64,000 nucleotides of DNA from Candidatus Micrarchaeota archaeon. GTDB lineage: Archaea > B1Sed10-29 > JAJSAI01. The position numbers were made by a program, and so were the translations under genes. The notes below the pieces were generated by a model, which was not told the origin of the DNA, ran no database searches, and worked only from the letters and a program-made list of their open reading frames with translations. Position 1 is the first letter of the stretch, and every line of letters starts with the position of its first letter. Shown here in pieces: positions 14,905 through 57,484 of this stretch. The stretch is taken from NCBI GenBank assembly GCA_964625085.1, contig CAZVAJ010000001.1:37708-101707 (forward strand), written 5' to 3'.

Positions 14905-15105
14905 ATGACAAAAAAGAAAACCATAATAAAAAAACCCGGCTCTCCTGTGGTAAGCGAGCTTGCGTTGGAAGACAAGCTTCTCCTGAAGAGCACTCTAGAC
15001 ACGAACGAAGACGAAATAGAGGGCATGTTGGAAAAACTGGAAAACGACCTGACCACAAAAAAGCTGAATGAAGAATTGAAAGAAGCTAAAAAGAAACGCG
15101 GCTAG
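14905..15105 (+). CDS. hypothetical small acidic coiled-coil protein (67 aa)
   Basis: ATG-initiated internal portion of ORF 14623..15105. The upstream part of that ORF overlaps orc1 on the other strand. Codon-like composition; no recognisable domain. Confidence 0.3.
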   Translation: MTKKKTIIKKPGSPVVSELALEDKLLLKSTLDTNEDEIEGMLEKLENDLTTKKLNEELKEAKKKRG

Positions 15106-16040: not shown

Positions 16041-16696
16041 AGCATCATCCCCACTACAGCTCCTGAGGTGGTTGCAACAAGGTTTGTTGAACTGTTTCCA
16101 ACAATCCCCCTGTTTTCAACAAGCGCGCCAAAAACGGAGTCTGCAAAGCATCCTGCAAGACCTGCTAACACAATAGGAACCATGCTCACCCCAAAAAACA
16201 TCCAACTCACTCCTGAAAAAACAATAGCAGCAACAGCACCCGAAATAGTTCCAAGCAGGCTTATTCCGCCATTAGTGCCTGGCGGAACCGTTTTAAGGCT
16301 GGTTATCATCACAGGCTCCTTCTTGGACAAAACACCGATTTCTGAAGAAATTGTGTCTGTCACTGCTGCTGAAAGCGCACCCAAAAACCCGTACAATCCT
16401 GCCGGGCCTCCGAGTAAAGCCATGAGGGCTGCAACTCCTCCATTGGCAATAACGTGCTTAGACTTTCTTCTTTTTTGATGTAACTTCTTCAGTGCTTTTA
16501 ACCTGTGCTTGTACTTGGTGGCTGACTCCCCTATTAAAAAGAATAGTAAGAGCATGTAAAACCATTCTATTCCCTGGCTTAGTACCAGAATGTATCCTAA
16601 CAGAACCCCTGAAACAACTCCCTCCGCGCTTAAGGAGCCTCCGGCCATGGCAAGCAGGCCTATGGCAAGAGGGAGTAGGATCGCGGACAATTCCAT
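16025..16696 (-). CDS. DUF92/TMEM19-like integral membrane protein (tentative)
   Basis: 223-aa multi-TM protein with a glycine-rich ANGGVAALMALLGG segment. Overlaps the carS start, so is probably co-transcribed. Confidence 0.4.
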   Translation of the reverse strand: MELSAILLPLAIGLLAMAGGSLSAEGVVSGVLLGYILVLSQGIEWFYMLLLFFLIGESATKYKHRLKALKKLHQKRRKSKHVIANGGVAALMALLGGPAGLYGFLGALSAAVTDTISSEIGVLSKKEPVMITSLKTVPPGTNGGISLLGTISGAVAAIVFSGVSWMFFGVSMVPIVLAGLAGCFADSVFGALVENRGIVGNSSTNLVATTSGAVVGMMLCSIL

Positions 16697-18558: not shown

Positions 18559-19221
18559 ATGAAGTATAAAGAGTATGTTAGAATATACCGAACAGTGTCA
18601 GAAGAGAATGTTGGAAATGACCCTCTGCTGGCCAACATTCTTGAAAAGAAGGTAGTGCGTGATGTTAAAAGAAGGTATCATGTGCTCTTGAAGAACGGCC
18701 TTGCTAAGGAATGGGTGGAAGGGAGTACTGTTCGAGAACTTGCGGAGAAATACGAGTTCCCACCATTTCTACTTTCAAAAATGATCAAAAAACAGGTCGG
18801 AATAAACAAAAGGCTGCTGCGCGAAATGACCGAAGCAGAAAAACAGGACAGGTTCTATTCAAAGCGTGCAGCGGAACAGGCTGCTGAAAATGGGAAGGAA
18901 GTGGAAAAGGAGGTTGCAAGATGGCTTTCGGAAAGGGGCGCACAGTTTCTCAGAGGAGACTTCATAGAAGGGCCCCTACATCCTGACATACTTTTCCAGC
19001 CACCATTTGAGATAAACGGAAAAAAGATTAACTGGATAGAATGCAAGTACTACTTTGGCTCAAAACAGGATATGGAAAAGCACTGGAAAGGTCAACTAAA
19101 AAAGTACAAGAAGGCATTTGGCCCAGGGGCGATAGTGTACTGGCTTGGTTTTGTCGAAGACAAGGTACCGGACGATGAGCATCTCGTCCTTTCAGCGGAC
19201 CTTTTTACACAGAATAATTGA
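18559..19221 (+). CDS. conserved hypothetical protein; N-terminal HTH-like region plus C-terminal putative PD-(D/E)xK nuclease fold (CDIN1/C15orf41 'TPD'-like, tentative)
   Basis: The C-terminal block HPDILF...INWIECKYYF fits a D...ExK nuclease motif. No other recognisable domain. Divergent from bud32. Confidence 0.35.
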   Translation: MKYKEYVRIYRTVSEENVGNDPLLANILEKKVVRDVKRRYHVLLKNGLAKEWVEGSTVRELAEKYEFPPFLLSKMIKKQVGINKRLLREMTEAEKQDRFYSKRAAEQAAENGKEVEKEVARWLSERGAQFLRGDFIEGPLHPDILFQPPFEINGKKINWIECKYYFGSKQDMEKHWKGQLKKYKKAFGPGAIVYWLGFVEDKVPDDEHLVLSADLFTQNN

Positions 19222-19618
19222 GCACGTTCACCGCAACGTTATACAACACATTCTTTCCAGGTTCTGGGCATATCCCTGTAATGTTTGTGAGTCTGCTGTT
19301 CTGCTGGCCTTTTTCGATCGTCCCAATAACCTCTGTCTTTTTGTTGATAACCTGGCCAGTCGCAGAATCTGCCACAATGAGGGCAACATAGACATCATGA
19401 GCTGTGTCGCCATCATTTGCAATTGTCCACTGGACTCTTAAAGTGCATGCGTCAGGATCATACGCAGGAGGAGGGTTCTGGTCAACCCACGCAGTAATTT
19501 TAGGAGAGGGTTTTGGAGTGATAGATTCCATGATCTGCCCACTGTAGGGGATAATAAGAAAAGCTGCCACGAACAGTACAACAATCAAAGAGATGATGAC
19601 CACAAACCGCATAAGCAT
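19205..19618 (-). CDS. hypothetical secreted or membrane-anchored protein (N-terminal TM/signal anchor)
   Basis: 137 aa with an N-terminal hydrophobic helix followed by a Pro/Asp-rich domain. Lies directly downstream of the KaiC-like ATPase on the same strand. Confidence 0.4.
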   Translation of the reverse strand: MLMRFVVIISLIVVLFVAAFLIIPYSGQIMESITPKPSPKITAWVDQNPPPAYDPDACTLRVQWTIANDGDTAHDVYVALIVADSATGQVINKKTEVIGTIEKGQQNSRLTNITGICPEPGKNVLYNVAVNVLNYSV

Positions 19619-19646
19619 ACTAACTGATTGGGGGTATAAAAATATT

Positions 19647-20360
19647 TCAGAAAGGAGGAATGACCATCATACCATTGCCTGTGATATCAACAGGGAAAGG
19701 TTGCTTGGGAACGTCTGTTGCCACCATCTTTTCAAAATACAGCTGAGTTATCCTTTGTCCTTTTTCTTCTGCTCTTGATAATCTAAGCACTCCGTCAAAT
19801 ACAAAGTCTTCTTCTTCAAAAAAGGAAATCCCATCAGGCCTTGTTTCTGAAATAAAGAGGGTAGTGCAGCCTTTTTCTTTAAGTGATTTTGATAAGGAGT
19901 GTAGCATGTTTCGATACTCTCCTTTTTCGTTGAAGTAGAATCCCAAAGGGGTCACTGAATCAAACGCGATCCTCTTCACGTTCATCTCGTCTATTATCTT
20001 GTACAACTGGAGCACCACTTCTGAATGAAGGTTACGGGCCTCAAACTTGGAAAAGTCCTGAGAAGAGAAAACAGTGAAAATAAGCCTGTTCTGTGCAGAT
20101 ATTGTTGAAAAATCCCAGTTGAATGCCGCTTGGTACCATTCTATGTCACTTGGGTAACCGTGAACCTGCACAAGAAGACCGTTTTCATCATATTCTTCAA
20201 CACCCTTGTACAAATACTGTAGTGCAGCGATCGTTTTCCCAGTACCGCTAGGGCCTTTTAGGAGGATTGAACTGCCTTTTATTATTCCTCCTTCAGTTAT
20301 CTCATCAAACCCAGGTATCCCACTCTTGATCCGATCCAATTTACACAAGCCTCCTGACAA
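19647..20360 (-). CDS. KaiC/RecA-superfamily ATPase (single-domain; RadB/FlaH-like)
   Basis: Walker A GPSGTGKT in a KaiC-like context (GIPGFDEI...GG). 237 aa. Confidence 0.7.
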   Translation of the reverse strand: MSGGLCKLDRIKSGIPGFDEITEGGIIKGSSILLKGPSGTGKTIAALQYLYKGVEEYDENGLLVQVHGYPSDIEWYQAAFNWDFSTISAQNRLIFTVFSSQDFSKFEARNLHSEVVLQLYKIIDEMNVKRIAFDSVTPLGFYFNEKGEYRNMLHSLSKSLKEKGCTTLFISETRPDGISFFEEEDFVFDGVLRLSRAEEKGQRITQLYFEKMVATDVPKQPFPVDITGNGMMVIPPF

Positions 20361-21879
20361 ACTCCGCGTATGCAGGTCTTGCTATGAACACTCCAATAAG
20401 TGACCCGAGTATGGTGGTTAGTGCAAAACCTTTTAACACGCCAAGACCAAGCGTGAACAGCGGGAACATTGCGATTATCGTGGTGAAAGCAGCCATCATT
20501 ATGATGTTCACCGCTTTCTTTATCCTAGAAGCGATTCCTGCTCTCTTTTCTTTTGACGCACCTTTGACTGCTTCGTCTGTTATGATTATCAGGTGGTCCA
20601 CTCCTGTTCCTACTGCTGCTATAATACCGGCCACTGCTGGAAGGTCAAGCTGCCAGCCTATCCAAGCAGCCATTCCAAGAATCATCACAGCCTCTGAAAC
20701 GCTTATCATGAGCATTGGCCCCACTATTTTTGGTTTCTTGTACCTGAAGAATATCACCATGCCCACGGCAAGTATTGCAGCCAGTCCTGCAACTCCTGAG
20801 TAGTACAGGAATTCCTTGCCAAGAGATGCTGAAACTGAGGAAACACCTGAAACCTGCACTGACACAGGAAGCTTTCCTGAATCAAGGATTATTCTCGTCC
20901 GGTCTCTTTCTGCAATTGCCTCCTCTTCATTTGAGGCCCCACCGGTTATCCTGAGATCGTACTGAACTTCTCCTGAGGTTACTGCACTTGTTAGGCGCAC
21001 AATACTCTGCAGGTTTATAGCCCCCGGAATAAAGTAGTTACCTGTTTGCGGTTTTACCTGCACTTCAGATGCGCTTGAGTTGAGAAGTGAGATGTATTCT
21101 TCTAGAGGACTTCCTTCTTTGAGGATGACCGTCTTGTTCTTAACCTGATCTAAGACCTGCTGGTCCACCGTGCCAGTGACTATAAGACCAATATCAGAAT
21201 CCTGCAAGAGCTCTTCAAGAGGAATCTTGCTGTTTGAAGGCGATTCCTGATTAAATTGTTCAGGGATCTCTTTTTCAGCTTCATACTCTGTGGGGGTTAG
21301 TAGGATTACCGCGTTCTGCGGTCTGTCAATGAACATGTATGTTCTTTCCATGCACTGGGAACCGCTAGGATCGGAGGGGTCTAAGGTGCACTTGCCTGCA
21401 ACCATGTTCGCGAACTGTTTGGCTGCTGAAGTGCTCATGGTGAACGGAACGCTCCACATATATCCTGTGCCTGCTCTGCTGACTGTGTATCCCCTAGTAG
21501 GATCAGACACGACACCAATAATTCCATCAGAACCTAGCAGGACCTTGCCCTCAAACATTGCCTCGAACCTGCCCTGTTCCCCGATTATTTTTTGTATAGC
21601 TGCCACTACTTTCGGGTCTGTTTCAGCCACCTCAACCATGATAAAGTCCGGGCCTCCTGGCCGTACTTTCATGTCCTTTAGCCCGAAACTGTTAAGCCTG
21701 TCCTGTAGAACTCTTACAAGAACCTCTTTTTCAGGACCCTCGACTGGTTCGGAGAGTTGTATGTTTATTATTGTTCCACCTGTAAAGTCCATTCCAAACT
21801 GAAGGGGCTTTATCGCGAATGGCAGAAGCCCTATGACTATAAAAGATATCACGTACAACTTTGTTCTGATGTTTTTCAC
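20341..21879 (-). CDS. secD: protein-export membrane protein SecD
   Basis: 512 aa with an N-terminal TM, a large periplasmic-type domain and six C-terminal TM helices. Follows secF as in archaeal secFD operons. Confidence 0.8.
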   Translation of the reverse strand: MKNIRTKLYVISFIVIGLLPFAIKPLQFGMDFTGGTIINIQLSEPVEGPEKEVLVRVLQDRLNSFGLKDMKVRPGGPDFIMVEVAETDPKVVAAIQKIIGEQGRFEAMFEGKVLLGSDGIIGVVSDPTRGYTVSRAGTGYMWSVPFTMSTSAAKQFANMVAGKCTLDPSDPSGSQCMERTYMFIDRPQNAVILLTPTEYEAEKEIPEQFNQESPSNSKIPLEELLQDSDIGLIVTGTVDQQVLDQVKNKTVILKEGSPLEEYISLLNSSASEVQVKPQTGNYFIPGAINLQSIVRLTSAVTSGEVQYDLRITGGASNEEEAIAERDRTRIILDSGKLPVSVQVSGVSSVSASLGKEFLYYSGVAGLAAILAVGMVIFFRYKKPKIVGPMLMISVSEAVMILGMAAWIGWQLDLPAVAGIIAAVGTGVDHLIIITDEAVKGASKEKRAGIASRIKKAVNIIMMAAFTTIIAMFPLFTLGLGVLKGFALTTILGSLIGVFIARPAYAEFVRRLV

Positions 21880-22892
21880 TTCTTACGCCTCCTTGATATC
21901 CAAAGTAGTATTGATGCATTAGTGCACCAGGTTGAAACAAGATCTCCTAGAAGTCCGACGAACAGGATCATTGCAATCATTGCAAGAGTTTCAACACCCC
22001 CAAAAGACGCGGCAGCATAAAGGGCCACCAAAGCAGCGAGTGTTGTTCCAGTCATCGTGAACCCGGTTCTCATCGCAGACTTTATTCTGTTTTCAGGAGA
22101 ACCTTCTTTTCTTGAAAGCACGCGCTCACTCAACATGATGTCCGTGTCAACAGAGTACCCTATAAGCATTAACAAGGGCGCAACAGCAGCCAGACTGAGT
22201 GGTATTTTCATCATGCCGATAAAGCCCAGGCCAACGATCACGTCAAAAACTGCTGCCTGGATAACCGCAAATGACACCAACACTTTCCTGAAAAACACGA
22301 ACACTAAAATGCTCATGAGGATGAACGAGAATATTAGGGCGTTCTGCATCTGAGACAGAAAAACAGCCCCCAAAGACGGTCCAACTTCACGAGAGGAAAT
22401 GTCCTTTGAAGAAACATGATACGTTTCGGTGATGAAAGAAGAAAGCGAGGACTTGAACTCAGTTTTTTTCTCGTTATATACCTTAAACGCAAGTTCTGAT
22501 AGGTTGCCTTCTGCAGGAACAGGCTCGCCCAGCGTGGAAAAAACTGCCTGATAGTCTCCTGACTTATACGCTTCTTCTGCGGCCACAAGGGTTCTCTCGC
22601 CCTTAAATTCTATTATGATTCCTGAAATAGCTCCTGAAGAAGACCTGGCTTTCAGCTCTTCAAGATCAAACCTACTGGAGAGGTCTTCTTTTACCTGCAC
22701 AGGACTAACGTTGGTGGGAAAAGAAATTACAGTTCCTCCTGTAAATTCTATTCCTGGCTCTATCTGGGTAGCAAAAAACAGGAAAATGACAGCAATAATC
22801 ACCGGAGGTATAAACAACATTTTGTAATTCTTCTCAGAGTACATGCTCAAGAACAATCCCCTCTTTTTCCAGCATAGTGTATAAAACAACAC
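21876..22892 (-). CDS. secF: protein-export membrane protein SecF
   Basis: 338 aa with SecDF-type TM topology. ATGA overlap with secD. Confidence 0.8.
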   Translation of the reverse strand: MLFYTLCWKKRGLFLSMYSEKNYKMLFIPPVIIAVIFLFFATQIEPGIEFTGGTVISFPTNVSPVQVKEDLSSRFDLEELKARSSSGAISGIIIEFKGERTLVAAEEAYKSGDYQAVFSTLGEPVPAEGNLSELAFKVYNEKKTEFKSSLSSFITETYHVSSKDISSREVGPSLGAVFLSQMQNALIFSFILMSILVFVFFRKVLVSFAVIQAAVFDVIVGLGFIGMMKIPLSLAAVAPLLMLIGYSVDTDIMLSERVLSRKEGSPENRIKSAMRTGFTMTGTTLAALVALYAAASFGGVETLAMIAMILFVGLLGDLVSTWCTNASILLWISRRRKK

Positions 22893-28836: not shown

Positions 28837-30311
28837 TGAATGGAAGTGAGGCAGTAAACATCCTTCAGGAAAAAGGGTTTCTCCTCGCTCCAAAAACTAT
28901 CGAACTCGTTCTGTCAGCCGAGAACCCTGAAGAGATAGTAAACTTAGTTCTGGAAAAGTGTTCTGGAAAAACATTCATCCTTCCAGAAGACCTAGAAGAA
29001 AAAACAAAAACCAAGATCTCTCCTGAGAAAAAAGAGCAGCCAGTTATCGTAGAAAAAGCAAAAACATTCAAACCACTTGCAGAGGAGATAGAAGCAAGAG
29101 TAGAAAAAATGTGTGACTCCGAAATCCTAAGCAGGGGCAATGTCAAAGAATTCGTGGAATACTTCCAAGACCGTTACAATAAACTTGTCTCAGTCCTCAG
29201 GAGAAGAGGCAGCATAACAAAAGTCAAGGACATCCGGAAAAAAACCGAAAGAGAACTTAGAATTGCAGGTCTGGTCTACGAAAAGCGAAGAACAAAAAAC
29301 GGGCATCTGATGATCACAATAGAGGATGACACAGGCATGATAAACCTGCTGGTCCCGAAAAGCGATGCACAACTCATGGCCACCGCAGAAAACACTCTGC
29401 TCGACAGCGTGATTGCAGTGGACATAAGAAAAACGAACGGAAGCCTGCTAATCGCTAAAAAGATAATAGAGCCGGGAGTTATGAGGCAAGACACACCCTC
29501 TGCAGGAGAAGAAGTCATGGCGGCGGTGCTTTCTGACCCTCACGTAGGAAGCAAGCTGTTCATGAAAGAAAACTTTGAGAAGATGATCGCCTGGCTTCAA
29601 GGAAAAACAAGTCACGAGAAATATCTGAGGATAGCTGAAAAAGTAAAGTACATTGTTGTAACAGGAGACCTGGTTGACGGTATTGGAGTTTACCCAGGGC
29701 AAGAAAACGAACTGGAGTACACAGACATTTTTGAACAGTATCAAAAATTCTCAGAATACCTGCTCGAGATACCTGAATACATCCACATCGTGATAATCCC
29801 AGGCAACCACGATGCTGTACGAACCGCTGACCCGCAGCCAGCAATACCCTTAGAACTATTACCTGAACTAAAGAATACCGGCAACATCCATCTTGGAACA
29901 AGCCCCAGCACATGGAACATTCACGGTATAAAAACACTCGTGTACCATGGGACAAGCTTTGATGACATTGTTGCCAACATAAACAGTGCAACATACAATG
30001 AGCCTGAAACCATACTAGAAAAAGTGCTCATGACAAGACACCTACATCCATACTACGGCGGAAAACCAATAATCCCAACAGAACACGATTCGCTTGCAAT
30101 AAACGAACTTCCAAACCTCATGTTAACAGGACACATTCACAAGAATGCGTATCTGCAGAAAAACGGGTTGCTGGCAGTAAACGGAGGGACATGGCAACAG
30201 ATAACACCATATCAACAAAAGCAGGGGCACAAACCAACACCCTGCCAACTGCCCGTTATAGACCTTAACAGGATGAACATAAAAGTAGTTCACTTTGACA
30301 GGGGAGCATGA
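28837..30311 (+). CDS. polB: DNA polymerase D small subunit DP1 (Mre11-like 3'-5' exonuclease)
   Basis: Calcineurin-like phosphoesterase motifs GDLVDGIG and GNHD with a DP1-type N-terminal domain. The TTG at 28782 inside the hairpin is unlikely to be the start. Confidence 0.8.
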
Positions 30312-33300
30312 TGAACACATTGCTTGAAAGAACAGAGTGGTACTGGCAACACATGCAAGATAAAACAGAAGAAGCCTACAAGATAGCGGGAGCAGCAAGA
30401 GCAACTGGAAAAGACGTATCAACCAAAGTAGAGATCCCTCCTGCAGCAGATCTTGCAGCAAGAGTAGAAGGACTAGTCGGACCCAAAGGAGTAGCAGAAA
30501 AGATCAGAGAACTGCTGAAAGAAAACGATAGAGACACAATGACCCTAAGGATCATAGACCTGATAGTAAAAGGGACATTTGGGAAGTATGAAACAGAGGA
30601 GCAACTGGCAGAACAGTGCATTCGAACAGGGCTCGCAATAATAACAGAAGCAGTACCTGCCGCAGCCACAGAAGGAATCTCCCACACCAAAATCCTAGAC
30701 AACCCTGACGGCACAAGATGCCTTTCCGTGTACTACGCCGGACCAATAAGGTCAGCAGGAGGAACTGCTGCCGCTCTTTCAGTGGCTCTCGCAGACTACA
30801 CCAGAAGAAAAATGGGCCTGCAGGAATACAGACCCTCAAAAGAGGAAGTTGAAAGGTATGTTGAAGAAATAGGATTATACCATAACCTTGTTTCTAGGCT
30901 CCAGTACAATCCCCCTGAAGATGACATCAGACACATTGTCTCAAACTGCCCTGTTTGTGTAAGTGGAACACCCACCTCCGAACTTGAAGTAAGCGTTTAC
31001 AAGAACCTTCAGAGAATGGAAACAAACAGAATAAGGGGGGGAATGGCCTTAGTAATAGCAGAAGGAATAGCCCAAAAAGCAGCTAAGCTGCTGAAGTACT
31101 CCAAAAAATTTGAGCTCGGGTGGGACTGGATAGAAGCGATAGTCAAGGTAACAAAAAAAACAGGGGAAAAGAGAGAGATAAAACCAGTAACAAAATATCT
31201 CTCAGACATTGTGGGAGGCAGGCCCATATTCGCGTACCCCAGTCAAACAGGAGGACTCAGAATAAGGTACGGGAGAAGCAGGAACACAGGCCTTAACGCA
31301 AAAGGAGTGAACCCTGCCACGATGTACCTGACGAACGAGTTCATGGCCATAGGAACCCAACTGAAGCTCGAGCGGCCGGGCAAAGGGTGTGTCACGGTCC
31401 CTGTGAGTACTGTAGAAGGGCCCACGATCCTTCTCGACAATGGAGATGTAGTAAAAGTAAACACAGCCTCTAAAGCAATGGAAGTAAAAGACCGCGTTGC
31501 AGAGATTCTCTTCCTAGGAGACATCCTAATAAGCCACGGAGACTTTCTCAAATCCAACCACCCTCTTGTAAAACCAGGCATATGCGAAGAATGGTGGCAG
31601 CAGATATGTAAAGAGAGGGGTATAGGCGTTAATGACGCGTGGAACGTCAGTTCTGAAAAAGCAGTGGAACTGGCAAGGCAAGGTGCCCCAATGCACCCGA
31701 AGTACACATATTTTTACAATGCAGTGTCTTCAGACGATTTGCTTGAAATGGCAAGATGGCTCTCGAATGGCAGGATAACAAAAATGCACGGGATTGCAGG
31801 AGAACAAAGCAGGGTACTGGAAGTAGAAGTGTCAGAAGAAAAAAGGACTCTTGAAAGAATAGGTGTACCCCACAAGCTCAGAGGAGGAAAAGTGATAATA
31901 GAAGAAGCAGGCCCTCTGATAGAAACACTCTGCCTCACGCACATCAATGATCTATCTCTTCAAGAAGAAAACGTCCTTGAGTCTTTATCAAAAGCGAGCG
32001 GCATGGAGATAATGGAAAAAGAAGGCACATTCATCGGAGCCAGGATGGGCAGGCCTGAAAAAGCAAAACCAAGAAAAATGAACCCGCCCCCGAACCTGCT
32101 ATTCCCAATAGGAAAAAACGGTGGGAAGACAAGAACACTGCTAAAAGCAGCTGAGAAAGGAGTGATCTCAGTAGAAGCGGTCAGGTTGAAATGCCCTAAG
32201 TGCGGCAGGGAAACCATGAGCTATTACTGTCATGATTGCGGAGTGAGGACCGAAAGAGTATTCACCTGCACAAAGTGCGGCAAAAAAGGAAAATCAGAAA
32301 AATGCCCTTACTGCGGAGAACACGCAATACCCTACGCCTTCTTGCCATATGACCTGAAAAAAGCTGTGAAAGACGCTGAAAACAGGTTAGGAGAAAGGAC
32401 TCCTGAAAAAACAAAAGCAGTAGAAGGCTTGATAAACGGAGAAAAGATATTCGAGCCCATAGAAAAGGGAATACTGCGCGCAAAACACAATGTAGTAGTA
32501 TTCAGGGATGGAACAATAAGATTTGACGCAACAAACCTTCCCCTCACGCACTTCAAACCAAGGGAGATAGGAATAAGCGTAGAAAAGGCCAGAGAAATTG
32601 GGTACACGCATGACAAAGACGGTAAGCCCCTTGAAGACCCTGACCAAGTATGCGAGATGTTCGTGCAGGACATGATAATACCTGCAGAATCTGCTGAATA
32701 CATCCTCTCAGCAGCACAGTTCGTTGACGACCTGCTTGAAAAGTTCTATGGACTCCCAAGATACTATAACGCAGAGAAACCCTCTGACTTGGTAGGCCAT
32801 CTTGTGATAGCTCTAGCGCCCCACATCTCGGTCGGCGTTCTTGGAAGAATAATCGGGTTCAGCAGGGCCAGAGGAACCTACGCTCATCCGTACATGCACG
32901 CCGCATGCAGAAGAGACTGCTTTTCTCCGGAGGAAACCCTCCCGGTCTACGACGGGAAAGAGTGGAAAATAGTACAGATAGGCCCGTTCGTCGAGTCCCT
33001 GCTCTGCAGAAGAGAACCTAGAAAGACAGAGTTCGGAGACTGGGTGCTCCCGGTCGAAGGATACTATACTCTCGCCCTGAACCCCAAAACAAGAGAGTAC
33101 GAGCTCAAAAGGATCACTGCTTTCTCGAAACACGTTCCCCAGGACCACATGGTGGAAATAGTCCTCTCTGACAACAGGAAAATAAGGACCACAGGAACCC
33201 ACAAGTTCCCTGACCCTTCCTTTGGCAGGGTAAGAGCGCACGAGCTCGAGGAAGCATTGGTTCCGATGAAATTCAACATTCCTGAAAAAGATCCTGAAAG

Positions 33301-35107
33301 CATAGACTTGATGAACGCAAGAATAGAAGGGCTCATGGTCAGAGGAGCTGCGGGAATCCTTAGAAAATGGGTTCAGGAAAACGGAGGGTTCACCAAAGCC
33401 TCTGAAAAAATAGGCATCCCAAGATCCACTCTCTCAGATTACTGTTACAGGGACTCAGTCCCAGCAGAACTTCTGAAAACGCTTGGCTTGAAGGCGCCTG
33501 AAAACACAAGGGTTGGAGTGAAAAAAGATCATGTCACGCTTCCCAGGATCATCAGAGTAGACGAGCACTTGGCCAGGCTTCTCGGCTTCTACGCTGCAGA
33601 GGGCTACGCGCGGCACAGGGACAGAGAATACCAGACCGTCTTCTGCAACAAGAAACTAAAAGAAGGGGTCAAAAAAGAGCTGGAAAAGGCGCTTGGGATC
33701 CAGAAAACGTGGGAGAACGAATACGAGCTCGTGGTATCAAGCAGGATAATGTACGAGCTGTTCACGCGGGTCCTGGGCGCTGGAAAAAACGCCTACGAGA
33801 AGAGGGTTCCAAGCGTGCTTCTTGGGGCTAGAAAAGAGCTTGTCAAAGAGTTCCTCAGGGCCTACTTTGCTGGAGACGGGTGCATCTCCCGCGCAGGCAA
33901 CAGATCGCCTGAAGTATCCTGCACCAGCGTCTCCAAGATGTTGCTGAGGGATATCGAATTTCTACTAGCGCGCTTCAGCATAGCCACAAGCTGGTACGGG
34001 GCAGAACGGACTTCAAAAGGAAACGGGGTTGTGGCGTCCTGGTACTCAGAAAGGGGAAGGATCCTAACGACAAAAGAGTACAAGCTGAGGATGTACTCTG
34101 AAAACGCCAAGAAGTTCGTGGAAGAAGTAGGATTCTGGGATCCTGACAAGAACGCTAAAGCGAGAAAAATCCTGAGCGAGGCCAGGATCAAGGGCTCGAA
34201 AGCGAGGGTGGTGGGAGAGTCTAAAATCGTGCGGGCGAAGGAGATTAGAATAACCGAGAACAAAGAACTTGCACCCTCGTACAACCTTACTGTTGAAGAC
34301 CATCATAATGTAATAACTTCAGGAATCACAACCTTCCAATGTGACGGTGACGAAGACGCGTTCATGCTGTTACTTGACGCTCTCCTGAACTTCAGCAGAA
34401 GATACCTGCCAAGCTCAAGAGGCGGCACGATGGACGCGGCCATCGTGCTGACAACAAAAATAGACCCTGGAGAGGTGGACGATCAGGTTCACGAAATGGA
34501 CATAGTTTCAGAGTATCCTCTTGACTACTACCAAGCAGCGTGCAACAACCTAAACCCTTCTGACGTGAACGTGGAGCTAGTCAAAGACAGGCTGGGAACA
34601 AAAGAACAGTACTATGGAATGAAGTACACCCATGATACTGATAGGGTTGATGAGGGTCCTGTAGAATCAGCGTACACGACCCTAAAAACAATGGCTGAAA
34701 AAGTTGAGAAGCAGCTTGAGCTAGGGGAAAAGATCTTGGCAGTTGATGAAAGGGACCTTGCCAGCAGGGTGATTAACTTTCACTTCATGCGTGACATGAT
34801 GGGAAACCTAAGAGCATTTGGCCAGCAGGCCGTTAGGTGTGTTGATTGTAACAAAGTGTACAGGAGAACACCTCTTGCAGGAAAGTGCGTAAAATGCGGA
34901 GGGAGACTGGTACTGACAGTGAGCAAGGGAGGCATAGTAAAGTATCTTGAAGTCTCCAAAAACATTGCCAAAAAATACCACCTGTCCGACTACCTGAAAC
35001 AAAGGCTCATACTAATAGAAAATGATGTGAAAAGTTTCTTCGAGCTTGAAGAAATGGAAAAACGCGCAGAAGCAAAGAAACAGAAAAGCCTGGCTGAATT
35101 CGTGTAA
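30308..35107 (+). CDS. polC: DNA polymerase D large subunit DP2, interrupted in-frame by an intein
   Basis: 1599 aa. DP2 conserved blocks including HPYMHAA-RRD | CDGDEDAFMLLLDALLNFSRRYL and C-terminal zinc fingers CVDCNKVYRR...CVKCGG. A 474-aa insertion sits at the RRN/CDGDEDA site. Confidence 0.85.
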   Translation: MMNTLLERTEWYWQHMQDKTEEAYKIAGAARATGKDVSTKVEIPPAADLAARVEGLVGPKGVAEKIRELLKENDRDTMTLRIIDLIVKGTFGKYETEEQLAEQCIRTGLAIITEAVPAAATEGISHTKILDNPDGTRCLSVYYAGPIRSAGGTAAALSVALADYTRRKMGLQEYRPSKEEVERYVEEIGLYHNLVSRLQYNPPEDDIRHIVSNCPVCVSGTPTSELEVSVYKNLQRMETNRIRGGMALVIAEGIAQKAAKLLKYSKKFELGWDWIEAIVKVTKKTGEKREIKPVTKYLSDIVGGRPIFAYPSQTGGLRIRYGRSRNTGLNAKGVNPATMYLTNEFMAIGTQLKLERPGKGCVTVPVSTVEGPTILLDNGDVVKVNTASKAMEVKDRVAEILFLGDILISHGDFLKSNHPLVKPGICEEWWQQICKERGIGVNDAWNVSSEKAVELARQGAPMHPKYTYFYNAVSSDDLLEMARWLSNGRITKMHGIAGEQSRVLEVEVSEEKRTLERIGVPHKLRGGKVIIEEAGPLIETLCLTHINDLSLQEENVLESLSKASGMEIMEKEGTFIGARMGRPEKAKPRKMNPPPNLLFPIGKNGGKTRTLLKAAEKGVISVEAVRLKCPKCGRETMSYYCHDCGVRTERVFTCTKCGKKGKSEKCPYCGEHAIPYAFLPYDLKKAVKDAENRLGERTPEKTKAVEGLINGEKIFEPIEKGILRAKHNVVVFRDGTIRFDATNLPLTHFKPREIGISVEKAREIGYTHDKDGKPLEDPDQVCEMFVQDMIIPAESAEYILSAAQFVDDLLEKFYGLPRYYNAEKPSDLVGHLVIALAPHISVGVLGRIIGFSRARGTYAHPYMHAACRRDCFSPEETLPVYDGKEWKIVQIGPFVESLLCRREPRKTEFGDWVLPVEGYYTLALNPKTREYELKRITAFSKHVPQDHMVEIVLSDNRKIRTTGTHKFPDPSFGRVRAHELEEALVPMKFNIPEKDPESIDLMNARIEGLMVRGAAGILRKWVQENGGFTKASEKIGIPRSTLSDYCYRDSVPAELLKTLGLKAPENTRVGVKKDHVTLPRIIRVDEHLARLLGFYAAEGYARHRDREYQTVFCNKKLKEGVKKELEKALGIQKTWENEYELVVSSRIMYELFTRVLGAGKNAYEKRVPSVLLGARKELVKEFLRAYFAGDGCISRAGNRSPEVSCTSVSKMLLRDIEFLLARFSIATSWYGAERTSKGNGVVASWYSERGRILTTKEYKLRMYSENAKKFVEEVGFWDPDKNAKARKILSEARIKGSKARVVGESKIVRAKEIRITENKELAPSYNLTVEDHHNVITSGITTFQCDGDEDAFMLLLDALLNFSRRYLPSSRGGTMDAAIVLTTKIDPGEVDDQVHEMDIVSEYPLDYYQAACNNLNPSDVNVELVKDRLGTKEQYYGMKYTHDTDRVDEGPVESAYTTLKTMAEKVEKQLELGEKILAVDERDLASRVINFHFMRDMMGNLRAFGQQAVRCVDCNKVYRRTPLAGKCVKCGGRLVLTVSKGGIVKYLEVSKNIAKKYHLSDYLKQRLILIENDVKSFFELEEMEKRAEAKKQKSLAEFV
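32918..34339 (+). mobile_element. intein in DP2 with LAGLIDADG homing endonuclease; Cys1, TxxH block B, C-terminal ...TTFQ (Gln, no penultimate His), +1 Cys
   Basis: Begins CFSPEE directly after extein RRD. Block B is TGTHKF. The two LAGLIDADG motifs are LLGFYAAEGYA and FLRAYFAGDGCIS. Block G is YNLTVEDHHNVITSGITTFQ, followed by extein CDGDEDA. Confidence 0.75.
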
Positions 35108-41942: not shown

Positions 41943-43043
41943 CTACTGAGCAAGCTTTATTTGAATTATCTCGTTGTACAGTGTGCTAAAAGCAATGTTC
42001 CGGGTGACATTGCTTCCTACTGGAAGTAGTTCAGGGACCCAGTCCTCGAAAAACCTGTTCATCACCCTGTACTCTTTTCCATCCAAAACAATCTTTTCTC
42101 CGGGTAGCATGAAACGGGTCTTCCAGTCAAGGCGCACTAGGCTTGCTGGAATGGCCTGAAGCGAACTGTTCAAGCGGTCCAGCTGGTCATCAGACAATGG
42201 TGCGAGAACTGCTGAGAAAGAAGTGTTATGCACATCAAGGGACTTTATTGTTGTCCAGTTAAGCGCGCTCCTTACCTGTTCTTCAGTAACATTTGACGAC
42301 AAAGAGGCCAACATGCCTGTCTCCACGTGCACTGCAGGGAGGATTGTCTCGTTCTTGTAGTGCACCTGAGCCTGGAACAGGTCAGATGCTGGCAGGCCAA
42401 GGAAAGGATCATCGTTTCTTATTTCAGCGTCAACACAGGACTGGAATGACCTTATCTTACCTGCGGCCATAACAACCTTGCACGAAAGGCGCACAGTGTC
42501 ATTCTTTTGCCGTGAATACAATACTGCCACTCCAGGAATAATCCTCTCAGAAACAGTGCCATTATCAGAGGAATTAAACACCACTGTAACCCTCGCAAGA
42601 GAGAGGGGAGTGTACGCTGGTTCGGAGAAAAGCGAACTCATCCGGTAGAACGTCCTAAACCCTATTTCTTTCATCTGGCTAAGATTAAACCCTGAAAACG
42701 CAACATGGTACTCGTAGCCGTTTCCGTAAGGGTTTAACGTGACATCAACAGAGTAAGAATCATCAGACAGATTGTAGTCCTGTGCCACCTCAGAAAGAAG
42801 AATCTTGGCAGCATCAAGGTCCTCTGCCTTTGAAACACCCTTAAAAGAAAATGCGGGAGTCAAGTCATCTATTCTTGCCGTGACATTAACCTGTTCCACT
42901 GAAAGCAGGCCCTGCTGCTGTTCTTCTGCCACAGGCGGCTGGGGCAGTTCTTTCACAACAGGAGAACTGAAAAACCACACGATGGGACCTGCGGAAAACA
43001 GCAGGATTACTGCGATTATTAGAACCTTGATCTCTTTGTTCAT
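41943..43043 (-). CDS. hypothetical extracellular protein with N-terminal signal anchor (366 aa)
   Basis: N-terminal TM MNKEIKVLIIAVILLFSAGPIVWFF followed by a beta-rich domain with several N-x-S/T sequons. Confidence 0.4.
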   Translation of the reverse strand: MNKEIKVLIIAVILLFSAGPIVWFFSSPVVKELPQPPVAEEQQQGLLSVEQVNVTARIDDLTPAFSFKGVSKAEDLDAAKILLSEVAQDYNLSDDSYSVDVTLNPYGNGYEYHVAFSGFNLSQMKEIGFRTFYRMSSLFSEPAYTPLSLARVTVVFNSSDNGTVSERIIPGVAVLYSRQKNDTVRLSCKVVMAAGKIRSFQSCVDAEIRNDDPFLGLPASDLFQAQVHYKNETILPAVHVETGMLASLSSNVTEEQVRSALNWTTIKSLDVHNTSFSAVLAPLSDDQLDRLNSSLQAIPASLVRLDWKTRFMLPGEKIVLDGKEYRVMNRFFEDWVPELLPVGSNVTRNIAFSTLYNEIIQIKLAQ

Positions 43044-53770: not shown

Positions 53771-54301
53771 ATGGTTCTGAGGCTTGTTATAACCGGCGTT
53801 CCTGGAACAGGAAAGACAACTGTTGCCAGGGCACTTGGGAAAAAGCTGGGAATGCCTGTAATCAGCCTGACAGATTACATGAAAAAGAAAAAACTCTACT
53901 CAGGAGAGATTGAAGGAGAACTGGTCGCAGACCTAAACAAGCTGAAAAAAGCGCTGTCAAAAGAAGAGAACGTGATAATAGAAGGGCATCTTGCGTGCGA
54001 GGTAAAGGTGCCTGACTCCCTTGTTATAGTGCTTAGAACAAGGCCAGATGTTATAAAAGAAAGGCTCTCAGACAGAGGTTATTCTGACAAAAAACTAAGG
54101 GATAACATGGAAGCAGAAGCCCTTGACTACTGCACAATCCGGGCAGAAGAAGAATACGGGCAAAAAAGAGTGTACGAGGTGGACACCACAGGAAAGACGG
54201 TCGAACAGGTAGTAGAAGAATGCTTGAGAATAGCAAAAGGGCGTGCAGGAAAACAGAAGAGAATAGACTTTTCAGACTATTTTCTCAGCAGGGGAAACTG
54301 A
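53771..54301 (+). CDS. Fap7/AK6-type adenylate kinase-like NTPase
   Basis: Walker A GVPGTGKTT and an overall 176-aa layout like archaeal putative adenylate kinases (hCINAP family). Confidence 0.6.
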   Translation: MVLRLVITGVPGTGKTTVARALGKKLGMPVISLTDYMKKKKLYSGEIEGELVADLNKLKKALSKEENVIIEGHLACEVKVPDSLVIVLRTRPDVIKERLSDRGYSDKKLRDNMEAEALDYCTIRAEEEYGQKRVYEVDTTGKTVEQVVEECLRIAKGRAGKQKRIDFSDYFLSRGN

Positions 54302-54653
54302 CCGACTGATACCCTGTTTGGCTTATTGTGTACTCTCTGCTGCCAGGAAGTGACGCGTTCATGTCAAAGTATGATGTCTCGCCCACATCAAGTTCAGACA
54401 CGTAGAACCAAGCCACTTCCCCTCCAGTAGAATTGTACACCGTGAAGTTAGTGTTCCGGATAACAAGCGCGCCCCCGTTCTTAACCTGTATAACGTTCCC
54501 TTCACATGACTGGACTATCAGAGACCGGTAGACCGTGTCAGGAAGAACAGGTTTTTCAGCGTACGGAAGCACCCAGTAGTACACTGAAATGCCTGCAATC
54601 ACGGTTATTGCAATAAACAGTACCATCGCTATGATTGGAGAAAGTCCTTTCAT
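54285..54653 (-). CDS. archaeal type IV pilin-like protein with class III signal peptide (DUF361-like)
   Basis: N-terminus MKGLSPIIAMVLFIAITVIAG matches the KG-SP-IA prepilin peptidase (PibD/FlaK) motif plus a hydrophobic stretch. Confidence 0.65.
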   Translation of the reverse strand: MKGLSPIIAMVLFIAITVIAGISVYYWVLPYAEKPVLPDTVYRSLIVQSCEGNVIQVKNGGALVIRNTNFTVYNSTGGEVAWFYVSELDVGETSYFDMNASLPGSREYTISQTGYQSVSFPC

Positions 54654-54713
54654 GTTTTCTTGAACTCAGTCAAGTAATTTAATTGTTTCACAATCCTTAC
54701 TCTCACAGGAGGA

Positions 54714-54932
54714 TCAAGACACCTGATCCTGCTGTTGCTGATCATGTCTATCACAAGATAAAACTTCACTAACAAGCCCCCACGGAATTGTGTCTCTCAC
54801 CTTCATCTTAAGTTCTTTTATGCTCTTGCACGTGATTTCTTTCCTGTTTAACGTGATCCTGTACTCCCCGCTGGCGTTCTCGTGCTCTATTATCAGCCGG
54901 CAGTCTCCTTGGAATATTATTAAGGTATTCAT
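54714..54932 (-). CDS. hypothetical small protein (72 aa) between the large surface protein and the pilin
   Basis: ATGA-coupled to the upstream 819-aa ORF. No recognisable motif. Confidence 0.3.
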   Translation of the reverse strand: MNTLIIFQGDCRLIIEHENASGEYRITLNRKEITCKSIKELKMKVRDTIPWGLVSEVLSCDRHDQQQQDQVS

Positions 54933-57388
54933 AGTGTTCTCCTTACAAGCTTTTTCTTGTTCTGTTTCTTCAGCATGAAAAACGAGAACGCTGCAAAGCC
55001 CAATGGAACCGCGTAGTAGGAGTAGTTATTGGATTCTGTTTTTTCCTGAGAAGTTTTATCCTCTTCTTTTTCAGAGCCCTCAGAGAGCTTTAGGGCAGAC
55101 TCTTCTGCTTGCTGTTCTTCAATTACTGGTTCTTCTATTATTGGTTTTACTTCAGGCCGGGTGATAGGAGCTGGTGTGTCAGGAGCGGGCTTAAGAAGAG
55201 ACTGCACGGCAAAATCAGTGTACTCAGGCTGGCTGGTAAACGAATACTCTGGTTTATCGGCAGGTGGCTGGTCCCCGTTGATTATTGTGGGCGTGTATTC
55301 TGTTGTGGTGGTTTCAGCAGGAGCTGAAAGAACCGCTGCCAGTGTTTTGACCTCTCCCTGATTCAAAGAAGATATTAGGAACAGGATTCTGCCATCGTGT
55401 TGTATGCATGAATTGCATGACTCAACATCTGCTTCTACTGGATACGATAACAAGATGTTCTTCAGACTGGCTCCTGGGTTGATTACCCTTATCCTGAACA
55501 CCTGATCTGTTCTTGAAGACTGTGAAATAAGCCAGCATGGCTTGGTGTACAAAACCGTTGCCTTGCTAACAGCAGTTTCTCCTTCAGGAAGTATCACGGG
55601 CAGAGGAGACGTTATCTGGTACTCTTTCTCGTAGTACACTTTTTCGTTGTCTGCCTTTACTTGCTCGTTCCTGATCACCTTGCATTCTGGGCGCGCGAGT
55701 AGGCTGATGTTAACCGCTTTCTCTGCACTTGAGAAATGTTTTTCCTGAGAGTTGTCAGGAAAGAACAGACCTGGAGGAAGCTTGATGTTTGCTTGGTACG
55801 CTGTGGTTTTTGGGCCTGTGAACATGATTGTTGCGTTGATGTATGTTTCGGCACTGCAGGGGAGGGGATTTGTCGGAAGCAGCAGTGAATACCCTGAACT
55901 GATAGTGGCCAGCTGTTTATCCAGGTCCAGCAGGATGTCCTGGTATTCTTTGATGATGTTTCCTATATTATCATCAAGGTCGGACTGGTCTGCTTTCAAA
56001 AGCCGGTAGTGTATTCTGTCAAGGAACTCTTCGCTTGCACCTGCTGTTTTAAGTGTGTAGTACTTTTCCCATGCCTTGGCTGAAAGTTGTCTTGCTATCT
56101 CCTTGTATTCTTCCAGTTTTTCTTGCATCCCTCTCAAGCGGTTTTTGAGTATTCCCCTGGAGTCAGGGCTTGAGTCATCAGGCCAATCTGGCTTGCATTC
56201 GATGCCCACAGACCTGAGGGAAGCGCATAGTTTCTCAGCAAGCTTTTTCTCCTGGTCTGGTGTGGAGTGTGTTTTTTCTGAAAAGGTTATGCATTTTTTC
56301 AGCAGGTTTATTCGCTCTCCCAGCTTTCTGCTCGTACTTGAGCAAACCTGTTTTGCAAGTGGGTATAATGCGCTTTCCGGGTTTGCTTGAGAAAACTTTT
56401 GCCTGGCTTGCGCGCGCAGGACCGGCTCTGTTTCAACCGCTTGCTGCAGCGCGCCCTCCAAAGAAAGCAGGATGCTGGAAGCATTAGTGTTGTAACCATG
56501 CAGAAGGATTATTGCCTTTGCTTTCCTCCCGTTCGCGTACATCACTGAGAATTTTTTCATTCTTCCGTCATGCGCTGCTAACCAGGATGTTGCAATGTAG
56601 TATGCTTGTTTAACGCTCATGTTTCCTGATGATGATATCTCACGCTGTTCTAAGGGCAGCGAGTCCCACACCACCATGTCAAGGGCATTACTCTCGTACT
56701 CTTTTACCCTGTAACTGAGTCTTGTGCTGAGTTCTTCTGAAGTCTGCTTTTCTTGCTTGTACTCTGCTTCTATTTCTTGCAAGGCATGGAGAAACCTTTT
56801 ATGCTGCGAGAACATCAGTGTGAACAAAGAATCAGGGTATCCTACAAGAGTATTGTACACGTTGCCTCCTGCCGAAGCGAGGTTAAGGTCCTTCCTAACT
56901 TTTTCAGCGTTTTCTCCGAGCATCATCTTGTTGGAGCCTGCTTCTTTCACTGCTTTTACTGTTTCCTTTAGATCAAGGTAAACTGGTTTGGCCTTGCCCG
57001 AATACTCTTGGTCTGCTACCCCCATTTCTTCAAGCACTTCAGCATCTTTTTCGATCAACACGGCCATGCCGCTGAACGCCTGGGAAGCATCATAATACAC
57101 TTGTTCTAACTTTGCTTTGCAGTAGCTTGACAAGAACAGGCTGCTTTCAGCTTCTTTCAGGTACAAGGCCAGCATGTCCCTGGTCTCGTTCTTCGCGTTT
57201 TCTGCATCATACCATGCTTTTGACAGGCTTTGCAGGTAGTACTCTTTTCCAGGAGCGTCGTACGCCTGCAGGCTTGCGGGAATGTTGGGCGGTGTGTTGA
57301 GTTCTGTTATTCTTGACTGATAGTCTGAAACTGAAAGAAGGCCATTCAACGCCAAGCCGATTAGTATGGCCTGTATTACAGGAGCCAT
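54929..57388 (-). CDS. large secreted surface protein (819 aa) with Thr/Pro/Glu-rich linker and C-terminal PGF-CTERM-like sorting signal
   Basis: Sec signal peptide and a helical ectodomain. The C-terminus is a TTTEYTPT...PAPDTPAPITRPEVKP linker followed by VPLGFAAFSFFMLKKQNKKKLVRRTL (motif, TM, basic cluster). Confidence 0.6.
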   Translation of the reverse strand: MAPVIQAILIGLALNGLLSVSDYQSRITELNTPPNIPASLQAYDAPGKEYYLQSLSKAWYDAENAKNETRDMLALYLKEAESSLFLSSYCKAKLEQVYYDASQAFSGMAVLIEKDAEVLEEMGVADQEYSGKAKPVYLDLKETVKAVKEAGSNKMMLGENAEKVRKDLNLASAGGNVYNTLVGYPDSLFTLMFSQHKRFLHALQEIEAEYKQEKQTSEELSTRLSYRVKEYESNALDMVVWDSLPLEQREISSSGNMSVKQAYYIATSWLAAHDGRMKKFSVMYANGRKAKAIILLHGYNTNASSILLSLEGALQQAVETEPVLRAQARQKFSQANPESALYPLAKQVCSSTSRKLGERINLLKKCITFSEKTHSTPDQEKKLAEKLCASLRSVGIECKPDWPDDSSPDSRGILKNRLRGMQEKLEEYKEIARQLSAKAWEKYYTLKTAGASEEFLDRIHYRLLKADQSDLDDNIGNIIKEYQDILLDLDKQLATISSGYSLLLPTNPLPCSAETYINATIMFTGPKTTAYQANIKLPPGLFFPDNSQEKHFSSAEKAVNISLLARPECKVIRNEQVKADNEKVYYEKEYQITSPLPVILPEGETAVSKATVLYTKPCWLISQSSRTDQVFRIRVINPGASLKNILLSYPVEADVESCNSCIQHDGRILFLISSLNQGEVKTLAAVLSAPAETTTTEYTPTIINGDQPPADKPEYSFTSQPEYTDFAVQSLLKPAPDTPAPITRPEVKPIIEEPVIEEQQAEESALKLSEGSEKEEDKTSQEKTESNNYSYYAVPLGFAAFSFFMLKKQNKKKLVRRTL

Positions 57389-57484
57389 GGAAAAGAGTGA
57401 GGGTCAAAACATGATTAAACGCCTGCAAAAACCCTGCAGTTTACTCCAGTTAAACCTTAAAAACGAGCGTAAAGTATCATTAAC

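Follow-up and report, generated by a model that had tools for sequence, protein, structure and literature searches.

Does the three-gene cluster on the minus strand of this archaeal contig encode a surface protein that is processed by an archaeosortase and co-expressed with a pilin, as proposed in a sequence-only reading, or a more ordinary set of envelope proteins? We analysed the cluster within a window of 64,000 nucleotides, which is the whole stretch of DNA under study, and concluded that it is an ordinary, lineage-specific and rapidly evolving cell-envelope locus in an uncultivated archaeon. The explanation that we favour, at somewhat better than even confidence, is a lineage-restricted envelope locus encoding a surface protein on a stalk and a transmembrane (TM) anchor, a small cytoplasmic protein and an ordinary stand-alone pilin.

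The gene cluster and its orthologous locus

All three open reading frames (ORFs) that had been claimed were found, each at the coordinates and on the strand described earlier:

54929..57388, minus strand: gene for the 819-aa protein
54714..54932, minus strand: gene for the 72-aa protein, its start overlapping the stop of the 819-aa gene
54285..54653, minus strand: gene for the 122-aa pilin-like protein

The proposed ATGA coupling of the 72-aa ORF could be read directly from the sequence, in which ...ACA CTA TGA overlaps ATG AAT ACC. An exhaustive HMMER search yielded just two relatives of the 819-aa protein. One of them is a 761-aa protein with 40% identity in another archaeal MAG (GCA_024274695.1, contig JAJSAI010000019.1). 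The check for orthologous operons that had been suggested thus revealed a cluster in the same layout, with the 761-aa gene followed by a 67-aa ORF (4-nt overlap) and then by a 125-aa pilin gene, and part of the trio was present on a third metagenome contig. Because the same trio occurs in GCA_024274695.1 and a partial one on the third contig, the sequences indicate that the trio is beyond chance and that all three ORFs are real genes.

Between the two complete loci the identity was 40% for the 819-aa protein, 20% for the 72-aa protein and 41% for the pilin, and most flanking genes were 68-83% identical (HycI 46%). As judged from the sequences, the low identity of the three genes is typical of exposed proteins. 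The whole 20-kb region, flanking housekeeping genes included, is collinear in both genomes, and therefore the kept adjacency neither proves nor disproves that the three genes are functionally linked. Word-indexed homology searches with the 819-aa protein and with the pilin each returned the query alone, and a genome scan and a metagenome scan with the 819-aa protein gave no matches. When the neighbouring AMMECR1 protein was used for a genome scan, 28 loci at 40-53% identity were obtained, and at the two best of these no comparable cluster adjoined AMMECR1. No Rfam families were detected in the 52-60 kb part of the window and no meaningful tandem repeats in the cluster region. A viral origin of the cluster was rejected, as PHROG gave no meaningful matches and the flanking genes are housekeeping genes.

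The 819-aa protein and its C-terminal tail

Along the 819-aa protein the following parts were distinguished, from the N terminus to the C terminus:

57326..57388, minus strand: N-terminal hydrophobic export signal, aa 1-21; signal-peptidase site predicted at S19-V-S21↓D22
55898..57325, minus strand: all-helical ectodomain, aa 22-497 (AF2 model and alignment)
55319..55897, minus strand: beta-rich region, aa 498-690 (AF2 strands 499-687, low to moderate confidence)
55025..55318, minus strand: acidic Thr/Pro/Glu/Ser-rich stalk, aa 691-788 (composition and AF2)
54932..55024, minus strand: C-terminal anchor YSYYAVPLGFAAFSFFML, aa 789-806, and basic tail KKQNKKKLVRRTL, aa 807-819 (sequence)

The N terminus is hydrophobic (Kyte-Doolittle mean of 1.9 over the 19-residue window aa 2-20) and the S/T-x-S↓DY site is conserved in an alignment of all three homologues, which points to a Sec-type export signal that is cleaved, although the N terminus may alternatively be an uncleaved signal anchor. 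The helical ectodomain is the best conserved part, with 46-52% identity over aa 1-150, and includes the conserved Cys90, Cys349 and Cys366. In the AF2 model, which was built on a three-sequence alignment, helices extend over aa 2-496, with block pLDDT values of 70-88 over aa 111-140, 191-230 and most of 261-370 and 431-490, and several stretches of the helical ectodomain below 50. Alignments of the beta region showed conserved Cys511 and Cys569, a C658-x-x-C661 pair and an N518-A-T sequon. The Thr/Pro/Glu-rich linker described earlier was recovered as the stalk, of which T, P, E and S make up 50% and which carries a net charge of -14. The stalk lacks conservation in the ortholog (18-28% identity) and was modelled without secondary structure at a pLDDT of about 30, indicating disorder; after it, the AF2 model ends in a helix. 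Searches with the 819-aa protein against Pfam, NCBIfam and PDB (sequence profile) and by fold gave no match. Taken together, it looks like a membrane-anchored surface protein with a head of about 475 helical residues, a beta region of about 190 residues, a stalk, a TM helix and a basic tail.

The tail had been read as PGF-CTERM-like, and its sequence, NNYSYYAVPLGFAAFSFFMLKKQNKKKLVRRTL, was confirmed. It contains a hydrophobic 18-mer followed by seven Lys or Arg residues among the last 13, both conserved, and its core YY-x-[VI]-PLGFA-xx-SF-xx-LK is conserved in the homologue. The layout of motif, hydrophobic 14-18-mer and basic cluster is present, but it fits any type I membrane anchor too. The PGF-CTERM model (TIGR04126) did not match, and neither did the other CTERM sorting models of NCBIfam, with whole proteins or with isolated 45-47-aa tails (E up to 10). 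No Pro-Gly-Phe directly precedes the hydrophobic domain; the tail reads ...YYAVPLGFAAFSFFMLKK, with a Leu between P and GF that makes the motif PLGF, not PGF. Moreover, just eight hydrophobic residues separate PLGF from the Lys cluster, which places the motif inside the helix and not before it. Processing by ArtA is motif-specific, as changing PGF to PFG abolishes it (PMC6098224). Based on these results, the 819-aa protein was not supported as a PGF-CTERM archaeosortase substrate.

The enzyme that had been proposed to process the tail is located far from the cluster:

15086..15544, minus strand: 152-aa exosortase/archaeosortase-family protein (TIGR04178 match)

Its membership of the archaeosortase family was borne out by TIGR04178 (40.4 bits, cutoff 23), the motifs PACTGI and FFRVAV are visible in it, and it is the sole archaeosortase homolog within the window. 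However, it is not ArtA (37.9 bits against a cutoff of 75), and it also stayed below the cutoffs of ArtB, ArtE, ArtF, pacearchaeosortase and heimdallarchaeosortase. Its gene lies in an operon with lipid-synthesis genes, overlapping the CarS gene (CDP-archaeol synthase) by 26 nt, at a distance of 39 kb from the surface cluster. No other protein with a YY-x-[VI]-PLGFA-like tail was found among the ORFs of the roughly 100 kb examined (window and related loci), a degenerate-DNA scan of metagenomes with the back-translated tail motif gave no second carrier among the matches listed (at least 119), and a homology search with the aligned tails gave no candidates. With an enzyme other than ArtA, 39 kb away, and no second tail of this kind in the DNA examined, the claim of processing by this homolog was not supported.

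Some observations nevertheless count against a simple anchor. In the TM core 12 of 19 residues are conserved, as compared to 18-28% in the adjacent stalk, and a passive anchor does not need such conservation. At 14-18 residues the hydrophobic stretch is short, and Pro-Leu-Gly occurs within it; in addition, the genome encodes an archaeosortase-family enzyme without an assigned substrate. An alternative is a new sorting signal ('PLGF-CTERM'), for which the 152-aa archaeosortase cleaves near the conserved motif and moves the protein onto archaeal lipid. Archaeosortase substrates share a general tripartite architecture with a distinct motif per subfamily (PMC6098224), and the tail is tripartite after an acidic Thr/Pro linker, with a motif core that is conserved and a linker that is not. 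As the enzyme has PACTG and FFRV and fits no named subfamily, its cognate signal would be unmodelled, and the overlap of its gene with that of CDP-archaeol synthase suggests a connection to lipids. Yet we consider this alternative unlikely, given the failure of every sorting model on the tail, the position of PLGF inside the helix together with the motif specificity of ArtA, the absence of a second carrier in the DNA and among the metagenome matches described above, and the distant location of the enzyme gene.

In the explanation that we favour, the N-terminal hydrophobic signal would direct the 819-aa protein to export via the Sec pathway, after which the single C-terminal TM helix would keep it on the cytoplasmic membrane with the Lys/Arg tail inside the cell. 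The acidic stalk of about 100 residues, probably glycosylated, would hold the helical head and the beta region off the membrane. Such anchoring would be of the SlaB-like 'stalk plus C-terminal TM' mode and not by an ArtA/PGF-CTERM lipid anchor.

The small protein, the pilin and their link to the large gene

The 72-aa protein is soluble and non-secreted, and no family match was found for it in searches that included Pfam, NCBIfam and PHROG. Its 67-aa counterpart in the ortholog locus has the same MNT[LI] start besides the same 4-nt overlap, and the ORF is open in both genomes, for which the chance under shuffled sequence is P ~0.006 and ~0.015. It would be made by translational coupling and stay in the cytoplasm; a role as a partner of the basic tail, or as a helper in export or assembly, is a guess.

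The class III prepilin signal claimed for the 122-aa protein, with the N terminus MKGLSPIIAMVLFIAITVIAG, was confirmed: the protein passed NCBIfam TIGR02537 (archaellin/type IV pilin N-terminal domain) with 31.3 bits and its ortholog with 22.7 bits (cutoff 20), but remained under the threshold of Pfam Pilin_N (15.5 versus 25.2 bits). Cleavage is predicted after the leader MKG and before L4 (M-K-G↓L-S-P; MKG↓LTP in the ortholog), and the site is followed by at least 22 uncharged residues, in an identical layout in the ortholog. According to the rule for archaeal SPase III, the residue at -2 is basic, that at -1 Gly or Ala and that at +1 hydrophobic (PMC3387779), which K, G and L at these positions fit. 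Among the ORFs of about 100 kb (window contig and ortholog locus) this was the sole credible class-III-like N terminus. The remainder of the protein comprises a hydrophobic helix (aa 4-29) and a CARDB-like beta domain, the CARDB matches being weak in both pilins. Cys50, Cys122 and the sequons N69 and N99 are conserved in the alignment of the two pilins, which have three and four sequons versus about one expected. It was concluded that the 122-aa protein is genuinely a pilin-like protein of the archaeal type IV kind. The view of the locus as a cell-surface one was supported, comprising an exported protein anchored in the membrane, a small ORF coupled to it in translation and a pilin with a class III signal. 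Prepilin peptidase would cut the pilin after MKG, the product would be N-glycosylated and disulfide-bonded, and pilus machinery encoded elsewhere would assemble it. The globular domain of the pilin was also considered as a copy of the beta region of the 819-aa protein and rejected (hhalign probability 0.7%).

TATA-like boxes were seen in both genomes upstream of the large gene as well as of the pilin gene, and a promoter role is suggested for those in the window:

57412..57419, minus strand: TATA-like box TTTAATCA, with its end 23 nt before the start codon of the 819-aa gene; putative promoter element
54675..54684, minus strand: TATA-like box AATTAAATTA, about 22-31 nt upstream of the pilin ATG and ending 21 nt from it; putative promoter element

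In the ortholog locus an equivalent ATTATATC is at the same distance from the ATG of the large gene, and AATTAAT occurs 32-38 nt upstream of the pilin ATG. The pilin thus probably has its own promoter, and may therefore be transcribed alone. The proposed co-expression with the pilin is left uncertain by the box before the pilin gene. The view that such pairings are rarely described was overstated, since pilin genes in archaea usually stand alone (PMC4858521) and pilins beside S-layer-like or adhesin-like proteins are known from type IV filament loci of archaea (PMC4858521; bioRxiv 10.64898/2026.04.22.720090).

The same filament loci offer a precedent for a second alternative, in which the trio is one type IV filament unit, with the large protein as a pilus adhesin or envelope 'primer', the 122-aa protein as a dedicated pilin or pseudopilin, and their membrane helices interacting. 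The tight same-strand arrangement that is kept in the ortholog locus, the equally fast evolution of the large protein and the pilin (40% and 41% identity) and the conserved TM core speak for such a unit. However, no prepilin peptidase, assembly ATPase or platform protein was found among the window ORFs scanned with Pfam or in an extra 10 kb upstream, and the pilin gene has a TATA-like box of its own. In addition, the synteny is uninformative, as the flanking housekeeping genes are equally collinear, and the beta domain of the pilin is unrelated to the beta region of the large protein, which together make the filament unit rather improbable. A quite doubtful proposal combines the pilin with the sorting signal: the tail would belong to a new small archaeosortase subfamily, that of the CDP-archaeol synthase operon, with one or very few dedicated substrates that are anchored to lipid, and the pilin would belong to the same structure of the envelope.

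Beta structure prevails in the archaeal S-layer proteins that have been characterised. A role of the 819-aa protein as the main S-layer or envelope component of the lineage is very unlikely. In favour of it, the protein is exported, probably glycosylated and provided with a stalk and C-terminal TM as in Sulfolobales anchoring (PMC3387779), and like many S-layer proteins it is lineage-specific and evolves fast. However, its head is all-helical, no S-layer family model matched (Pfam, NCBIfam), and at least one other orphan surface protein, heavily sequon-rich, is present in the window at 41943..43043. Its codon adaptation to the ribosomal-protein set (0.574) ranks in the lower third of the 52 genes compared, which speaks against very high expression, though weakly, as the codon bias of the genome is mild.

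Relation to known systems

Should the favoured explanation hold, the envelopes of uncultivated archaea, which are poorly charted, gain from this locus a further family of orphan surface proteins and a further stand-alone pilin; this aids annotation, and the fast divergence may suit a strain marker, with no concept changed. If it were true that the unclassified archaeosortase targets the conserved tail, the two would form a new enzyme-signal pair and a genetic link between the anchoring of proteins and archaeol synthesis.

Features in common with ArtA/PGF-CTERM substrates, such as the Haloferax volcanii S-layer glycoprotein, are export, an acidic Thr-rich linker, a hydrophobic stretch and a basic cluster in the 819-aa protein, and an archaeosortase-family gene in the genome. 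Unlike in those systems, P-L-G-F lies inside the hydrophobic stretch, no CTERM model matches, the enzyme is not ArtA and multiple substrates were not seen in the DNA examined. A large exported protein beside a pilin gene is similarly found in archaeal type IV filament loci with adhesin- or S-layer-like accessory proteins, but these are multi-Ig or PilY-like and occur within loci for an ATPase and a platform protein, whereas the 819-aa protein has a helical head and no machinery genes adjoin the cluster. The pilin differs from known archaeal pilins in having no detectable sequence relatives beyond one ortholog, in its score below the Pilin_N threshold, in a globular domain that is weakly CARDB-like and in machinery that was not seen in the DNA examined. 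It shares with archaeal type IV pilins (TIGR02537/Pfam Pilin_N), such as the stand-alone major pilins of Methanococcus and Haloferax, a short basic leader ending in Gly, a hydrophobic N-terminal helix of about 25 residues, a beta-sandwich of small size, sequons for N-glycosylation and a gene that lies outside operons for pilus machinery. SlaB of the Sulfolobales has no sequence or fold similarity to the 819-aa protein, in which the head is helical, there is no SlaA-like partner gene and a lattice role is not indicated. By analogy, a SlaB-type mechanism is still the most likely one for its anchoring, as in both cases a stalk before a C-terminal TM would hold the ectodomain off the membrane.

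The gene trio and its orthologous locus

All three minus-strand open reading frames lie exactly where the sequence-only reading had placed them, and the large gene's stop codon overlaps the start codon of the small one in an ATGA, as it had claimed. The C-terminus, the Thr/Pro/Glu-rich linker and the pilin N-terminus that it quoted were also found in the sequence.

Genes of the trio, read from the sequence
54929..57388, minus strand: 819-aa ORF
54714..54932, minus strand: 72-aa ORF
54285..54653, minus strand: 122-aa ORF (pilin-like)

The window is ordinary archaeal chromosome, with a GC content of about 45% and genes for ribosomal proteins, PolD, Cdc6, SecDF, NucS, a membrane-bound hydrogenase, SHMT and ThyX, and no signs of mobile elements were seen around the trio, either among the neighbour genes or in a PHROG scan. 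The PolD large subunit (DP2; 30308..35107, plus strand) is split by an intein that carries a LAGLIDADG homing-endonuclease domain, and a 173-aa CPBP/Rce1-like intramembrane protease (12367..12888, plus strand) is encoded directly 5' of the Kae1 gene.

A word-indexed search with the 819-aa protein returned only the protein itself, and an exhaustive HMMER search of 1.84 billion representatives gave just two relatives. The first, a 761-aa protein with 39-40% identity over the full length, is encoded on contig JAJSAI010000019.1 of GCA_024274695.1 (L031) in the same setting as in the window, with a divergent AMMECR1 gene upstream and, downstream, a 67-aa ORF (4-nt overlap), a 125-aa ORF with the N-terminus MKGLTP, then a kinase gene and NucS in convergent orientation. 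An orthologous gene cluster, the existence of which the earlier reading had raised as a question, was thus found with the same layout of the trio. The second relative is a 180-aa N-terminal piece, and its gene is likewise divergent from AMMECR1. On this 1.2-kb contig (L034, ERZ23495671 scaffold_74279) the large gene (347..1228) breaks off past codon 180 and continues in a different frame; either the sequence has an error here or the gene is a pseudogene. The family of the 819-aa protein is itself the sole new element and is restricted to three known lineages.

Between the window and L031 the identities of the large protein, the small ORF and the pilin are 40%, 20% and 41%, compared to 68-83% for most flanking genes and 46% for HycI, and therefore the trio is diverging much faster than its surroundings, a pattern that would fit exposed proteins. 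The similarity of the small ORFs is limited to MNT[LI] and a loose pattern, and each stays open in its genome (chance in shuffled sequence, P = 0.006 and 0.015). As the two genomes are collinear over the entire 20-kb region, the kept adjacency of the trio alone is uninformative on functional coupling.

The large and the small gene are translationally coupled in both genomes, and a TATA-like box precedes the large gene (TTTAATCA in the window, ATTATATC in L031), ending 23 nt upstream in both. The spacer from the small ORF to the pilin gene is 60 nt long in the window (74 nt in L031), and the pilin ATG has a TATA-like box of its own that ends 21 nt upstream in the window (AATTAAATTA) and 31 nt upstream in L031 (AATTAAT), so the pilin gene may be transcribed separately. 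No terminator-like element was found between the genes on the coding strand, and co-expression of the trio is possible. Directly past the stop of the small ORF an 11-12-nt element, TCCTCCTGT[G/C]AG (window 54702..54713, minus strand; L031 12503..12514), is conserved in both genomes although the rest of the spacer has diverged.

Layout of the 819-aa protein

Sequence, alignment with the relatives and an AlphaFold2 (AF2) model suggest the following layout.

Suggested domain layout of the 819-aa protein, with its basis
aa 1-21: hydrophobic N-terminus with a conserved S/T-x-S|DY (sequence, homologue alignment)
aa 22-497: helical head of about 475 residues with conserved cysteines (alignment, AF2)
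aa 498-690: beta-rich region, in which a CxxC and one sequon are conserved (alignment, AF2)
aa 691-788: acidic, non-conserved stalk, 50% T+P+E+S, net charge -14 (composition, identity)
aa 789-806: hydrophobic 18-mer (sequence)
aa 807-819: tail with 7 K/R in 13 residues (sequence)

The AF2 model, built from a 3-sequence alignment with a mean pLDDT of 58, was consistent with this layout. Structure prediction and remote-homology search had been proposed for the ectodomain; the former agreed with the layout, and the latter gave no meaningful match in Pfam, NCBIfam, PHROG or PDB sequences and nothing specific in fold searches. The best viral-structure match of the model (m61a288456f31) was a pithovirus DUF4139-domain protein (Foldseek E = 5.5e-4 and probability 0.99, yet a TM-score of 0.09-0.13). 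DUF4139 proteins likewise unite coiled coils with a beta domain, and a Pfam scan gave no sequence evidence for this likeness.

Based on the positive-inside rule, the N-terminal signal, the conserved cysteines and the sequon, we infer that the ectodomain is extracellular and the basic tail cytoplasmic. Among 52 genes this one ranks in the lower third for codon adaptation, and thus there is no indication of S-layer-level expression. A further heavily glycosylated surface protein is probably encoded at 41943..43043 (minus strand): a 366-aa orphan that has a hydrophobic anchor at its N-terminus, about a dozen N-X-S/T sequons and no family match. Additionally, the gene for a 137-aa DUF7490-domain protein, with one TM at the N-terminus, is located directly 3' of those for a KaiC-like ATPase of 237 aa and SecD/SecF (19205..22892, minus strand); this may be another small envelope-related cluster.

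The C-terminal tail and the archaeosortase-family enzyme

Substrates of archaeosortases combine a motif with a hydrophobic domain and a charged region, the motif differing from one enzyme subfamily to the next, and ArtA is motif-specific (PMC6098224). The sequence-only reading took the 819-aa protein for a PGF-CTERM-like substrate, and this membership fails. No CTERM sorting model in NCBIfam matched the large proteins or their isolated tails. The tail motif is P-L-G-F, located inside the hydrophobic stretch with just 8 hydrophobic residues beyond it. The invoked enzyme, a 152-aa TIGR04178 family member (15086..15544, minus strand), is below all subfamily cutoffs, including that of ArtA, and its gene is 39 kb from the trio.

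The same observations make it unlikely that the tail is a new archaeosortase sorting signal, although its core, YY-x-[VI]-PLGFA-xx-SF-xx-LK, is conserved at 12 of 19 residues, compared to 18-28% in the stalk, and the 152-aa enzyme must have some substrate. In about 100 kb (the window and the DNA stretches L001, L031 and L032) such a tail was not found on any further ORF, and none of the 119 matches listed from a metagenome scan with back-translated YY-x-[VIM]-P-[LF]-GFA was the end of a real protein. The archaeosortase-family gene overlaps carS (CDP-archaeol synthase, 15519..16040) by 26 nt, and the gene of a TIGR00297/DUF92 membrane protein (16025..16696) overlaps carS on its other side (whole region 15086..16696, minus strand); the unclassified archaeosortase therefore appears to be part of a lipid-synthesis operon. 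Together with the conserved tail, this is the one lead here that deserves further attention.

The pilin-like protein and known systems

The 122-aa protein and its L031 ortholog both passed TIGR02537 (31.3 and 22.7 bits, cutoff 20), and the 122-aa protein was below threshold for Pfam Pilin_N. Its N-terminus has K at -2, G at -1 and L at +1 and then continues as an uncharged helix, and so matches the decisive features of archaeal SPase III substrates (PMC3387779). The class-III signal proposed earlier was thereby borne out, and we file the protein as archaeal type IV pilin-like. No other ORF in the window, L001, L031 or L032 had a credible class-III-like N-terminus. The globular part gave weak CARDB matches in both orthologs, Cys50 and Cys122 are conserved, and the orthologs have 3 and 4 sequons where about 1 is expected, N69 and N99 being conserved.

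Genes for a prepilin peptidase, ATPase or platform protein were not found among the window ORFs scanned or in the flanking DNA; this is normal, since in most archaea pilin genes, often the major ones, are outside the machinery loci (PMC4858521). In archaeal filament loci, pilins are known to occur together with large proteins of an adhesin-like or S-layer-like kind (PMC4858521; bioRxiv 10.64898/2026.04.22.720090), and such a pairing is therefore not unusual, contrary to the earlier statement that it is rarely described. By analogy, the locus most likely encodes an envelope protein on a stalk and TM anchor, adjoining a stand-alone pilin, similar to the stalk-plus-TM mode of SlaB-type anchoring in Sulfolobales (PMC3387779).
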